Counted from the stretch's first letter, positions 1,237 through 9,671 are shown. The stretch is DNA of 13,319 bases from a virus (IMGVR_UViG_2529293239_000011); one strand, 5' to 3'. The notes: generated by a model from the letters alone, not told the origin. Program-made: numbers and translations.

Positions 1237-1310
1237 ATCATGAGTCTGAGGTAGCCTGAGTTTAACGGACACTCCTTCCTGAAATAGAATGGCATCAGAA
1301 GGAGCTAATA

Positions 1311-1613
1311 ATGAGCAGAAAAAACCAACGTTACTCTAAAGAGTTCAAAGCCGAAGCTGTCAGAACGGTTCTTGAAAATCAACTTTCGATCAGTGAAGGC
1401 GCTTCCCGATTATCCCTTCCTGAAGGCACTTTAGGACAATGGGTTACCGCCGCCAGAAAAGGGCTCGGTACTCCTGGTTCCCGCACGGTGGCTGAACTGG
1501 AATCTGAAATTCTGCAACTGCGTAAGGCGTTAAATGAAGCTCGCCTTGAGCGAGATATATTAAAAAAAGCAACAGCGTATTTTGCACAGGAGTCGCTGAA
1601 AAATACGCGTTAA
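1311..1613 (+). CDS. IS600 OrfA (transposase N-terminal, DNA-binding part), 100 aa
   Basis: Protein identical to the OrfA of the complete IS600 copy at 6173..6475; recognised as IS3-family OrfA. Confidence 0.9.
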   Translation: MSRKNQRYSKEFKAEAVRTVLENQLSISEGASRLSLPEGTLGQWVTAARKGLGTPGSRTVAELESEILQLRKALNEARLERDILKKATAYFAQESLKNTR

Positions 1614-1648
1614 TCGAACAATGGCGACAACAATTTCCCATTGAAGCG

Positions 1649-1875
1649 ATGTGTCAGGTATTTGGTGTATCCAGGAGCGGTTATTACAACTGGGTACAGC
1701 ATGAACCCTCAGACAGAAAACAAAGTGATGAGCGGCTAAAACTGGAGATTAAGGTGGCACATATCCGCACTCGCGAAACATATGGAACCCGGCGGCTCCA
1801 GACGGAGCTGGCAGAGAATGGCATCATCGTTGGTCGTGACCGACTGGCACGTCTTCGTAAGGAGCTAAGGCTACG
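1649..1875 (+). pseudogene. IS600 orfB, truncated after about 76 codons by the IS629 insertion
   Basis: Matches the N-terminus of the intact OrfB at 6511.. up to ...RKELRLR, then diverges into the IS629 terminal sequence. Confidence 0.85.
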
Positions 1876-1929
1876 TGAACCGCCCCGGGAATCCTGGAGA
1901 CTAAACTTCCTGAGAAAGAGGTAAACAGG

Positions 1930-2256
1930 ATGACTAAAAATACTCGTTTTTCCCCCGAAGTCCGTCAGAGGGCGATTCGTATGGTTCTGGAAAGTCAGGG
2001 CGAATATGACTCACAGTGGGCGGCAATTTGTTCCATTGCCCCAAAGATTGGCTGTACACCGGAGACTCTGCGTGTCTGGGTACGCCAGCATGAGCGGGAT
2101 ACCGGAGGCGGTGATGGCGGGCTCACCACCGCTGAACGTCAGCGTCTGAAAGAGCTGGAACGTGAAAATCGTGAACTGCGCCGCAGTAACGATATCCTTC
2201 GCCAGGCTTCCGCTTATTTTGCGAAGGCGGAGTTCGACCGCCTCTGGAAAAAGTGA
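1930..2256 (+). CDS. IS629 OrfA, 108 aa
   Basis: [33 protein letters not shown]..., recognised as IS629 OrfA with a helix-turn-helix and coiled-coil. Confidence 0.9.
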
Positions 2257-3143
2257 TGCCACTGCTGGATAAGCTGCGTAAGCTGTACGGGGTCGGACCG
2301 GTATGCAGTGAACTACATATTGCCCCGTCAACGTATTACCACTGTCAGCAACAGCGACATCATCCTGATAAACGCAGTGCCCGTGCGCAGCGCGATGACT
2401 GGCTGAAGAAAGAGATACTGCGCGTATACGATGGGAATCATCAGGTATACGGTGTGCGTAAAGTCTGGCGTCAGTTGTTACGGGAAGGTATCAGAGTGGC
2501 CAGATGCACTGTGGCACGTCTCATGGCGGTTATGGGACTTGCCGGTGTTCTCCGGGGTAAAAAGGTCCGTACGATCATCAGCCGGAAAGCCGTTGCCGCA
2601 GGCGACCGCGTAAACCGTCAGTTCGTGGCAGAACGACCTGACCAGCTGTGGGTGGCTGATTTTACTTACGTCAGCACATGGCAGGGCTTCGTCTATGTGG
2701 CGTTCATTATTGATGTGTTTGCCGGATACATCGTGGGGTGGCGGGTCTCATCGTCCATGGAAACGACATTCGTGCTGGATGCTCTGGAGCAGGCGTTATG
2801 GGCCCGTCGACCGTCCGGCACGGTCCATCACAGTGATAAAGGTTCTCAGTATGTATCGCTGGCCTACACACAGCGGCTTAAGGAAGCCGGATTACTGGCA
2901 TCAACAGGAAGTACAGGCGACTCGTATGACAACGCGATGGCGGAGAGCATCAATGGTCTTTACAAAGCGGAGGTAATACACCGTAAGAGCTGGAAAAACC
3001 GTGCAGAAGTGGAACTGGCCACACTCACGTGGGTGGACTGGTATAATAATCGACGATTGCTGGAAAGGCTGGGCCACATCCCTCCGGCAGAAGCAGAAAA
3101 AGCTTATTATGCTTCCATCGGAAACGATGATCTGGCAGCCTGA
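2253..3143 (+). CDS. IS629 OrfB (DDE transposase catalytic domain), 296 aa
   Basis: ORF overlapping the orfA stop; contains the integrase-type catalytic region ([25 protein letters not shown]). Confidence 0.9.
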
Positions 3144-3191
3144 GTTCACAGATAAAACACTCTCCAGGAAACCCGGGGCGGTTCATCCCGA

Positions 3192-3494
3192 TTATCGAGA
3201 ACAGTTCAGGGAGTCTGACATCAAGAGCGCGGTAGCCTTTTTTAATATTTCATTCTCCATTTCAATGCGTTGTAGCTTTTTCCTCAGCTTACGTATTTCG
3301 ATTTGTTCTGGTGTTATCGGAGAGGCTTTTGGTGTTTTGCCCTGACGCTCATCACGCAGTTGTTTGACCCATCTTGTCATTGTGGAAAGGCCAACATCCA
3401 TAGCTTTGGCAGCATCTGCCACCGTGTATTTCTGGTCAACAACCAGTTGAGCGGATTCGCGTTTAAACTCTGCGCTAAAATTTCTTTTTTTCAT
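3192..3494 (-). CDS. IS911 OrfA, 100 aa, canonical version with an intact A-AAA-AAG frameshift heptamer
   Basis: [51 protein letters not shown]...[15 protein letters not shown]; start placed at the internal ATG (the track ORF begins 12 codons upstream inside the inverted repeat). Confidence 0.85.
3237..3243 (-). other. IS911 programmed -1 ribosomal frameshift heptamer A-AAA-AAG (intact in this copy)
   Basis: Minus-strand sequence ...GAAATATTAAAAAAGGCTACC; A6G slippery motif characteristic of IS3-family orfA/orfB junctions. Confidence 0.6.
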
Positions 3495-3622
3495 TGGAGC
3501 ACCTGTGTTGTTCTGAGGTGAGCATATCACCTCTGTTCAGGTGGCCAAATTCAGTGTGCCACTTCAGCCCGAAAGGGCGGGGAGCAGTCACACATCTGTT
3601 TCCGATAGCCCCGTTCTAATGC

Positions 3623-3628
3623 TACACT
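3623..3628 (+). promoter_or_regulatory. Candidate extended -10 element (TGcTACACT) upstream of the QueH-like gene
   Basis: TG at 3620..3621 followed by hexamer TACACT; no convincing -35 or Shine-Dalgarno nearby, so weak. Confidence 0.25.
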
Positions 3629-3641
3629 CTTTGATATTTTT

Positions 3642-8128: not shown

Positions 8129-8205
8129 GGCCCTTTAGCTCAGTTGGTCAGAGCGAGCGACTCATAATCGCCAGGTCGCTGGTTCAAGTCCAGCAAGGGC
8201 CACCA
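8129..8205 (+). tRNA. tRNA with CAU anticodon, resembling E. coli ileX-type tRNA-Ile2 (cannot exclude tRNA-Met from sequence alone)
   Basis: Cloverleaf with 7-bp acceptor stem GGCCCTT/AAGGGCC, anticodon loop CTCATAA, T-loop TTCAAGT, encoded CCA. Confidence 0.85.
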
Positions 8206-8206
8206 A

Positions 8207-8283
8207 CCACCACTAGCTCATCCGGATAGAGCATCAACCTTCTAAGTTGACGGTGCGAGGTTCGAGTCCTCGGTGGTGGGCCA
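8207..8283 (+). tRNA. tRNA-Arg (anticodon UCU, reads rare AGA codons)
   Basis: Acceptor CCACCAC/GTGGTGG, anticodon stem TCAAC/GTTGA with loop CTTCTAA, T-loop TTCGAGT, encoded CCA. Confidence 0.85.
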
Positions 8284-8285
8284 GC

Positions 8286-8361
8286 GCCGACTTAGCTCAG
8301 CAGGCAGAGCAACTGACTTGTAATCAGTAGGTCACCAGTTCGATTCCGGTAGTCGGCACCA
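8286..8361 (+). tRNA. tRNA-Thr (anticodon UGU), thrU-like
   Basis: Acceptor GCCGACT/AGTCGGC, anticodon stem ACTGA/TCAGT with loop CTTGTAA, T-loop TTCGATT, encoded CCA. Confidence 0.85.
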
Positions 8362-8364
8362 TAT

Positions 8365-8425
8365 GCGGGCATCGTATAATGGCTATTACCTCAGCCTTCC
8401 AAGCTGATGATGCGGGTTCGATTCC
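8365..8425 (+). pseudogene. tRNA-Gly (anticodon UCC, glyT-like), 3' end missing through IS911 insertion
   Basis: Intact 5' acceptor strand, D-arm, anticodon arm (loop CTTCCAA) and 5' half of the T-arm (GCGGGTTCGATTCC), then the IS911 left repeat begins at 8426; the 3' acceptor strand and CCA are absent. Confidence 0.75.
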
Positions 8426-8497
8426 TGAAGTGGCACACTGAATTTGGCCACCTGAACAGAGGTGATATGCTCACCTCAGAACAACACAGGTGCTCCA

Positions 8498-8797
8498 ATG
8501 AAAAAAAGAAATTTTAGCGCAGAGTTTAAACGCGAATCCGCTCAACTGGTTGTTGACCAGAAATACACGGTGGCAGATGCCGCCAAAGCTATGGATGTTG
8601 GCCTTTCCACAATGACAAGATGGGTCAAACAACTGCGTGATGAGCGTCAGGGCAAAACACCAAAAGCCTCTCCGATAACACCAGAACAAATCGAAATACG
8701 TAAGCTGAGGAAAAAGCTACAACGCATTGAATGGAGAATGAATATTAAAAAGGCTACCGCGCTCTTGATGTCAGACTCCCTGAACAGTTCTCGATAA
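8498..8797 (+). CDS. IS911 OrfA variant, 99 aa, with an altered leucine-zipper segment (IEWRMNIKK instead of [10 protein letters not shown])
   Basis: Compared with the fragment copy at 3192..3494, three A-run deletions (GAAATGG to GAATGG, TGAAATA to TGAATA, TTAAAAAAGG to TTAAAAAGG) restore the frame after 7 codons and shorten the slippery heptamer to A5G. Confidence 0.8.
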
Positions 8798-8823
8798 TCG
8801 GGAAACTCAGAGCGCATTATCCT

Positions 8824-9663
8824 GTGGTCACACTCTGCCAAGTGTTCGGGGTTCATCGCAGCAGCTACAGATACTGGAAAAACCGTCCTGAAAAACCAGA
8901 CGGCAGACGGGCTGTATTACGCAGTCAGGTACTTGAGCTACATGGCATCAGCCATGGTTCGGCCGGAGCAAGAAGCATCGCCACAATGGCAACCCGGAGA
9001 GGCTACCAGATGGGACGCTGGCTTGCTGGCAGGCTCATGAAAGAGCTGGGGCTGGTCAGCTGTCAGCAGCCGACTCACCGGTATAAACGTGGTGGTCATG
9101 AACATGTTGCTATCCCTAACTACCTTGAAAGGCAGTTCGCCGTGACCGAGCCAAATCAGGTGTGGTGCGGCGATGTGACCTGTATCTGGACGGGTAAGCG
9201 CTGGGCGTACCTCGCCGTTGTTCTCGACCTGTTCGCAAGAAAACCAGTGGGCTGGGCCATGTCGTTCTCGCCGGACAGCAGGCTCACCATGAAAGCGCTG
9301 GAAATGGCATGGGAAACCCGTGGTAAGCCCGGCGGGGTGATGTTCCACAGCGATCAGGGCAGTCATTATACGAGCAGGCAGTTCCGGCAGTTATTGTGGC
9401 GATACCAGATCAGACAGAGTATGAGCCGGCGCGGAAACTGCTGGGATAACAGCCCAATGGAACGCTTCTTCAGGAGTCTGAAGAACGAATGGATGCCGGT
9501 GGTGGGTTACGTAAGCTTCAGCGAGGCAGCTCACGCCATAACGGACTATATCGTTGGATATTACAGCGCACTAAGACCGCACGAATATAACGGTGGGTTC
9601 CCCCCAAACGAATCGGAAAATCGATACTGGAAAAACTCTAACTCGGTGGCCAGTTTTTGTTGA
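8824..9663 (+). CDS. IS911 OrfB (DDE catalytic domain), normally expressed as an OrfAB fusion by -1 frameshifting
   Basis: Frame is -1 relative to orfA; contains [19 protein letters not shown] and [10 protein letters not shown] motifs. Coordinates are from the ORF track; the true entry point is the frameshift site near 8747..8753. Confidence 0.8.
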
Positions 9664-9671
9664 CCACTTCA

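Follow-up and report, generated by a model that had tools for sequence, protein, structure and literature searches.

Probable homologous deletion between direct IS600 copies in an eroded sit island from Shigella flexneri serotype 6

The viral sequence IMGVR_UViG_2529293239_000011, a stretch of 13,319 nt whose full length is called the window here, holds two pairs of insertion sequence (IS) copies, IS600 in direct and IS911 in inverted orientation, around a block of leftover prophage genes. We found that a chromosome of Shigella flexneri serotype 6, CP162048.1, is without exactly 4,862 bp of this arrangement and that its only IS600 copy at the locus has hybrid flanks (GTC/GGA), which bears out the proposal of an earlier note on this DNA that recombination between the direct IS600 repeats could delete the segment. 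Comparison of the sequences leads us to conclude with high confidence that these repeats served as a deletion substrate in nature. The overall picture is very probably that of an eroded sit island in which independent IS600 insertions were followed by a homologous IS600-IS600 deletion.

Results

A serotype 6 strain is without the DNA between the IS600 copies

Comparison of the window with itself by BLAST gave a direct repeat of 629 bp at 100% identity (1247-1875 = 6109-6737), placed around 4233 bp (1876-6108) as direct repeats of one IS are in a deletable or amplifiable unit. It also gave an inverted repeat (3186-3567 versus 8803-8425) around 4859 bp (3567-8425), with 382 aligned columns at 98.7% identity, two mismatches and three one-base gaps; the longest perfect inverted stretch in these IS911 arms is 307 bp. 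Repeats of such length and identity cannot have arisen by chance. Element boundaries were taken from reading the sequence at the ends: the IS600 left end TGAGGTAGCC stands at 1247 and again at 6109 and the right end ...ACACCTCA at 7372, and the IS911 left end (TGAAGTGG) occurs twice, on the minus strand at 3566 and on the plus strand at 8426. All of the repeat coordinates, orientations and interval sizes (4.2 and 4.9 kb) in the earlier note agree with these results.

Alternative layouts were obtained by looking up contigs that encode exact window proteins; the fetched loci are cited below by L number. No complete E. coli genome contains at least 80% of the window, so that collection gave no alternative layouts, and the int|IS600 junction found no match in a scan of a genome contig collection into which Shigella had apparently been folded under E. 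coli. The exact DUF1133 protein led us to CP162048.1 (L035, strain 600717), in which the order is ttcA, int, IS600, DUF1133, IS911, IS66, sitDCBA. By BLAST, window 1-1875 aligns with 7479-9353 of L035 and window 6109-13319 with 8725-15938, and the two matches overlap there by precisely the 629-bp repeat. L035 is thus the window minus 4,862 bp, with 99.93-99.95% identity elsewhere; an IS-bracketed unit has been lost and a single IS left behind. The remaining IS600 is complete (1264 bp), with GTC as its int-side flank and GGA as its Q-side flank. Two further places have the gene order int, IS600, DUF1133.

The IS600 of L035 keeps one parental flank from each copy, the classic mark of an exchange between two IS copies. 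The 629 bp of perfect direct homology would be the recombination substrate, either for loop-out or for unequal sister-chromatid exchange. The product would lose IS629, the IS911 stump, queH, hok/sok, rem, DUF1367 and the remnant ybcO' (4,862 bp in all) and would keep one complete IS600 between GTC and GGA.

Transposase could in principle have made the same deletion, through intramolecular transposition of IS600 or IS629 or through excision aided by an IS-excision enhancer. Several truncated IS600/IS629 junctions are known at this locus (IS600 positions 178, 399, 429 and 629), IS629 and IS911 are without target duplication, and one-ended deletions would give both patterns. However, the L035 deletion stops exactly at the outer edge of one IS600 arm, leaving an intact 1264-bp IS600 with a parental flank on each side; a transposase would have to hit one exact nucleotide to do this, whereas exchange anywhere in the 629-bp homology gives the product automatically, and we consider a transposase origin very unlikely. 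The short allele might also be an assembly artefact, a collapse of the repeat across the two IS600 copies, given arms identical over 629 bp and paralogous queH-bearing prophages elsewhere in Shigella genomes that could absorb the reads of the block. We hold this to be extremely improbable: CP162048 is, according to PMC11708030, a completed chromosome and has two SRA runs, two more places share its gene order, and losing 4.2 kb with unique junctions would be unusual for a long-read assembly.

Other observations weigh against homologous IS600-IS600 deletion as the explanation of the locus, or limit it. At least four genomes, a historical isolate and a field isolate of the 2000s among them, keep the window layout, so such events must be rare on that timescale, and neither an IS911 inversion nor a duplication allele occurs in about 20 genomes. 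The deletion allele is known from assemblies. It could also descend from a layout like that of L050, by the same mechanism acting on a different substrate. For the exchange between IS600 copies, we infer RecA dependence and timing, and likewise the parent of the deletion allele, which had either the window layout or an older one with two full IS600 copies.

Target duplications point to independent insertions followed by erosion

The flanks of the IS600 copies indicate how the arms came to be there. On the int side, GTC|IS600|GTC is found in L024, L037 and L050, and in the less eroded CP000036.1, PSSU01000001.1 and AMGB01000034.1 this IS600 is complete, has GTC at both ends and is followed by xis and DUF1187. 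On the ybcO side, GGA stands at both ends of IS600 in the window (6106-6108 and 7373-7375), L016 and L034; in L037 only the right flank is GGA, and in L050 only the left flank lies within the locus. Comparison with an intact prophage showed that the flanks of the ybcO-side copy become contiguous once the IS is removed. Since the int copy has a GTC/GTC duplication and the ybcO copy a GGA/GGA duplication, the two IS600 copies are, on the testimony of their flanks, independent simple insertions. We had at first doubted that the complete IS600 had inserted simply, about 80 bp of ybcO being apparently missing. This was dropped in favor of a clean GGA duplication plus a separate deletion: alignment to the intact gene in L001 places an internal 83-bp deletion at window 6017-6018 (L001 12423-12505), with a short GGCGGG repeat at its edges, apart from the IS600 insertion.

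In the history that we propose, one IS600 would have inserted between int and xis (duplication GTC) and the other in the 3' end of ybcO (duplication GGA). With the arrival of the IS629-type element, the copy beside int would then have been cut at position 629, and the DNA beyond that element, as far as position 381 in the upstream IS911, would have been lost. Loss of DNA on at least one side of the IS629-type element follows from its flanks, ACG and TCC, which form no target duplication, and from its abutting IS911 at position 381; this loss could reflect either IS629-IS629 recombination or a transposase-linked deletion. The downstream IS911 (flanks TCC on the left and GTT on the right) is likewise without duplication; it connects the tRNA-Gly stump with an IS110-family fragment and marks the deletion of the late region. 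Insertions of IS600, IS629, IS911 and IS110- and IS66-family elements, each followed by deletion, would have shrunk the prophage to int, the queH/hok-sok/rem/DUF1367/ybcO' block, the Q-like gene, the tRNA cluster and sitABCD.

We rejected a composite transposon as the origin of the bracketed unit. The left IS600 is truncated, with its right end and transposase lost, and the left IS911 is a 381-bp stump; the outer flanks of the unit are GTC and GGA, with no single shared duplication around it.

Among the elements themselves, the copy at 6109-7372 agrees with IS600 in its terminal inverted repeats, overlapping orfA and orfB (open reading frames, ORFs, of 100 and 272 aa) and 3-bp duplication at a length of about 1264 bp. 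The name "IS3-like element IS600 family transposase" occurs among the features under E. coli hits to the whole window, unmapped to this interval. The element at 1876-3185, which cuts the IS600 fragment 1247-1875 at IS600 position 629, has the 1310-bp length, orfA, orfB (ORFs of 108 and 296 aa) and frameshift pseudoknot (Rfam ALIL, 2211-2327, 116 bits) of the IS629/IS1203 group. It is 98.7-99.2% identical to IS3-family elements of E. coli, annotated there as IS3 family transposase and AL1L pseudoknot. We take it to be IS629, the E. coli annotation saying only IS3 family.

The element at 8426-9671 is IS911 by descent, judging from its 99.5% identity to E. coli copies annotated directly under the match as IS3-like element IS911. 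It measures 1246 bp, compared with 1249-1250 bp spanned in relatives, and its first 378 bp (8426-8803) correspond to IS911 positions 1-381. A single A is missing in each of three A-runs (8730-31, 8741-42 and 8747-51), including the A6G frameshift motif, and the end of orfA is altered. These losses are absent in four closed relatives, where the IS911 arms are 99.5% identical with zero gaps, and the IS911 stump of the window is also normal. The three gaps between the window arms are the A-losses, which the closed relatives do not share, and the window therefore understates the homology of the IS911 arms; its full IS911 may be an inactivated copy or may carry homopolymer errors of a draft contig. 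The upstream IS911 is full length in L008, L032 and L050. Features named ISSfl3 and ISEc11/ISSso6 occur under whole-window hits, unmapped to 9672-12300, where IS110 and IS66 debris separates the prophage remnant from sit.

Inversion is seen through IS629, and layouts vary among relatives

For the inversion test, all fetched loci were decomposed into reference segments. Inversion between the IS911 arms was seen in none of the roughly 14 genomes that hold both: in every one, the block from queH to the tRNAs lies the same way round with respect to int and sit, and some of these genomes have two full 1250-bp IS911 copies. Both orientations among isolates, as an invertible segment would display, are thus lacking for the IS911 arms in this set, and the inversion that the earlier note thought possible between them went unobserved. 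The sole inversion uses IS629 copies. In CP160647.1 (L038 3192-7906), and likewise in L044, two inverted IS629 copies enclose a reversed segment made up of the IS911 stump, queH, hok and rem; there is an overlap of 3-4 bp at window 5288-5291, and the IS600 fragment is cut to 178 bp. Inversion of the 4.86-kb block by the IS911 route is possible in principle, the arms being perfectly identical over 307 bp or more.

Duplication of the 4.86-kb block by the IS600 arms could occur, and its product is unseen in the assemblies. The order ybcO', IS600(1-629), IS629, expected of tandem amplification, is found in no assembly, and a look-up of the fusion ORF (91 aa) that marks the junction of the IS600 fragment with IS629 returned no case with ybcO' upstream and no tandem duplication context. 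A second IS600(1-629)|IS629 junction is present in the genome of the window itself (AKMW01000023.1, L054 7599-8529; 99.8% identity, two mismatches), beside another prophage remnant near modC and extending to the contig end. This copy suggests that the nested IS600::IS629 structure passed from one locus to another by copying or exchange; the other possibility is a mis-extended contig end.

The locus takes at least eight layouts among relatives, which differ in where IS629 cuts IS600 (position 178, 399, 429 or 629), in the length of the upstream IS911 (381, 967 or full) and of int (321, 846 or full), and in the reach of deletions on the sit side. In CP045784.1, CP026807.1 and CP026823.1 (L008, L032 and L041), the downstream IS600 abuts rem at window 5185, DUF1367 and ybcO' are absent, int is cut to 321 bp, and the full upstream IS911 makes a complete inverted IS911 pair around the block. 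Every locus that reaches the sit side of the island has sitABCD. From this variety of assembled forms the locus is, as we read it, a hotspot of IS-driven erosion.

Across the loci, IS629 meets IS600 at positions 92, 178, 184, 399, 405, 429 and 629 (L027, L028, L007/L013-L018, L006, L047 and L048), and in other genomes IS629 lies within a complete or differently cut IS600 (breakpoints 92, 184 and 405). Either repeated IS629 insertion into IS600 or repeated deletions anchored at the IS629 end would produce such junctions. Nested one-ended deletions were given up as the sole reading of the 178/399/429/629 series, for which independent IS629 insertions into IS600, with IS629-IS629 recombination afterwards, fit equally well.

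The repeats might instead be inert scars, in a layout that is effectively fixed and with IS copies that no longer recombine at a relevant rate. The same layout in AKMW01000036.1, CP026811.1, CP162059.1 and further similar places is in keeping with this, as is the failure to find an IS911 inversion or a duplication. Yet CP162048.1 has the exact inter-IS600 deletion in a background 99.9% identical, CP160647.1 has a different rearrangement of the same block, and the relatives hold the eight or more layouts described above, which makes inert scars an unlikely account.

The block is what remains of a Rac-like prophage

Over 11,236 nt, contig AKMW01000036.1 (GCA_000267985.1), which may come from strain CCH060, matches the window at 100% identity. 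The layout of the window recurs in the closed genomes CP026811.1 (99.86%) and CP162059.1 (99.94%) and in further similar places, and is therefore no artefact of draft assembly. The three chromosomes central to the comparison are all from S. flexneri serotype 6: CP162059 from strain 604193 of clade VI, CP162048 from strain 600717 of clade V and CP160647 from strain 401192 of clade IV (PMC11708030).

Intact E. coli counterparts (L001 and L002) are Rac-like lambdoid prophages that hold, in the gene order of the window, queH, hokD, DUF1367, DUF1364, DUF1133 and tRNAs, followed by lysis and head genes. The int region of the window is 98.6% identical to the intR region of avian pathogenic E. coli (APEC) O1, where intR adjoins ttcA, and ttcA (PF01171) also adjoins the integrase in L016, L034 and L052; ttcA is the integration site of Rac (PMC6379469, PMC4632033). 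At the far end, sitCBA follow sitD in L013-L017 and L034-L038. The locus thus has an IntR-type int beside ttcA, a nin/Q/tRNA module and sitABCD at its far end. From the Rac-like gene order, ttcA beside int and sitCBA after sitD, we identify the window, by gene content and order, as the left part of the S. flexneri serotype 6 "sit island", an IS-eroded Rac-like lambdoid prophage at ttcA. The remnant in the window has lost xis, recET and the genes for immunity, replication, lysis and structure to IS-associated deletions, and since xis is deleted too, site-specific excision of the prophage would be impossible.

Feature coordinates are collected in Table 1. The earlier note placed a "cargo" between the repeats; the genes are there, and the word overstates them, the block being the leftover nin/Q/tRNA region of a dead Rac-like prophage. 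sitABCD, the only gene set with a known role, lies outside both brackets, as does sitD within the window.

Table 1. Features of the window, with the strand and the evidence for each
Feature	Coordinates	Strand	Evidence or remark
IntR-like tyrosine integrase, 411 aa from ATG at 1236	1..1236	-	Pfam Arm-DNA-bind_2, Phage_integrase
IS600 5' fragment, direct-repeat arm 1	1247..1875	+	Left inverted repeat, orfA, orfB start; 629 bp
IS629-type IS3-family element, 1310 bp	1876..3185	+	orfA, orfB, frameshift pseudoknot
IS911 left-end fragment, inverted-repeat arm 1	3186..3566	-	381 bp: left inverted repeat and orfA
queH (epoxyqueuosine reductase), complete	3663..4328	+	Pfam QueH, E=1.9e-65
hok/sok type I toxin-antitoxin locus	4386..4739	+	Rfam sok 108.5 bits; Pfam HOK_GEF
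rem-like ORF	4989-5276	+	PF27490 Rem listed for neighbouring gene in related loci
DUF1367 gene, complete	5315-5914	+	Pfam DUF1367, E=5.5e-97
ybcO/DUF1364 remnant	5914..6108	+	Pfam YbcO; IS600 cuts near 3' end
Complete IS600, 1264 bp	6109..7372	+	First 629 bp = direct-repeat arm 2
DUF1133 / Q-like antiterminator, intact, 184 aa	7385..7939	+	Pfam DUF1133, E=8.6e-109; weak Phage_antitermQ match
tRNA cluster: tRNA(CAU), tRNA-Arg(UCU), tRNA-Thr(UGU), tRNA-Gly 5' stump	8129..8425	+	ARAGORN
IS911, inverted-repeat arm 2 = 8426-8803	8426..9671	+	1246 bp
IS110-family transposase fragment	9673-10056 (within 9672..12300)	+	Pfam Transposase_20
IS66-family element, tnpC	10533-12134 (within 9672..12300)	+	Pfam DDE_Tnp_IS66
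sitD, last gene of sitABCD iron/manganese transporter	12462..13319	-	Pfam ABC-3

Several of these genes have exact counterparts elsewhere: a QueH protein of 221 aa identical to that of the window is present in intact Rac-like prophages, and an identical DUF1133 protein is found in many genomes. The tRNA(CAU) is called Met by ARAGORN and Ile in E. coli annotation. The 3' end of tRNA-Gly is cut by IS911 (stump 8365-8425; Rfam partial tRNA 8374-8428); intact relatives have the gene, and L001 has the intact four-tRNA array. The other half of tRNA-Gly and the entire lysis and structural region are absent from the window. At the opposite end, IS600 sits just 10 bp upstream of the ATG of the integrase, and the longest int ORF, 423 aa, starts from a GTG at 1272, 26 nt within IS600; some annotations call this 423-aa form.

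The hok gene is complete (4584-4739). Upstream of it, a 14-bp tandem repeat TGCTTCAGGCTATC at 4389-4440 (3.7 copies by Tandem Repeats Finder, TRF) lies within the Rfam sok / hok-leader match. This interval spans 32, 46 or 60 nt among relatives, or about 1.7, 2.7 and 3.7 copies, and the longest form is that of the window and strain 604193. One could imagine that in serotype 6 populations the IS600-bracketed 4.86-kb block switches recurrently between absent, single-copy and amplified states, with hok/sok as an anti-deletion addiction device whose activity the 14-bp repeat tunes, an idea to which we assign very little weight. If it were true, cells that loop out the block would die unless hok/sok were weakened, and the survival in most lineages of a block with no known function would be explained.

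Discussion

These results provide a sequence-verified case of prophage-remnant shrinkage, in which two independently inserted IS600 copies later acted as arms of homology and the intervening DNA was lost in one serotype 6 strain, with the hybrid flanks GTC/GGA as the record of the event. The locus, in its full, deleted and IS629-inverted forms, could be a structural marker for serotype 6 lineages, and short-read assemblies will misjudge gene content there. The genes with an established virulence role, sitABCD alone, stand outside the unstable block. That IS elements mediate deletions in Shigella, that the sit island is unstable and that stx in S. dysenteriae undergoes IS-linked amplification and deletion has already been described, and in this light the finding is an ordinary one that leaves the understanding of IS-mediated genome decay unchanged.

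The stx region of S. dysenteriae type 1 is a close precedent, and the repeats there are reportedly IS600 copies in direct orientation. The IS-flanked amplification at a Shigella toxin locus that the earlier note mentioned is real: McDonough and Butterton (1999, Mol Microbiol 34:1058) name the stx region's tandem amplification and its deletion in their title, and IS600 is known upstream of stx (PMC7819885). Both loci are defective lambdoid prophages of Shigella broken by IS elements that include IS600, and at both an IS-bracketed block has been spontaneously deleted. The two differ in the prophage, in attachment site (ttcA here, sapC/ychK there) and in content, the bracketed block here having no toxin and no known selectable gene; amplification has been reported there, whereas in the assemblies of our locus it is unobserved.

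More generally, one recognized way in which Shigella genomes decay is by deletion between homologous IS copies, and the five IS types that have expanded in every Shigella species include IS600 and IS911 (PMC7373316). According to a review that cites Fisher et al. 2009, the sit island has undergone rearrangement and is unstable through homologous recombination (PMC7545054). The locus is the same island as the sit pathogenicity island of S. flexneri and E. coli, with sitABCD ending an IS-rich, phage-derived region; the insertion sites that the review names are aspS and yecN, whereas here the island lies at ttcA beside an IntR-like integrase. The 4,862-bp IS600-to-IS600 deletion polymorphism of serotype 6 was not found in the accessible papers.

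The locus resembles Rac of E. coli K-12 and Rac-like prophages in integrase type, in its position at ttcA and in the order queH, hok, DUF1367, DUF1364, DUF1133, tRNAs. Unlike Rac, it has lost site-specific excision, and only IS-mediated events could remodel it. With composite transposons it shares the bracketing of other DNA by two copies of one IS; in contrast to them, it arose by independent insertions, not by movement as a unit.

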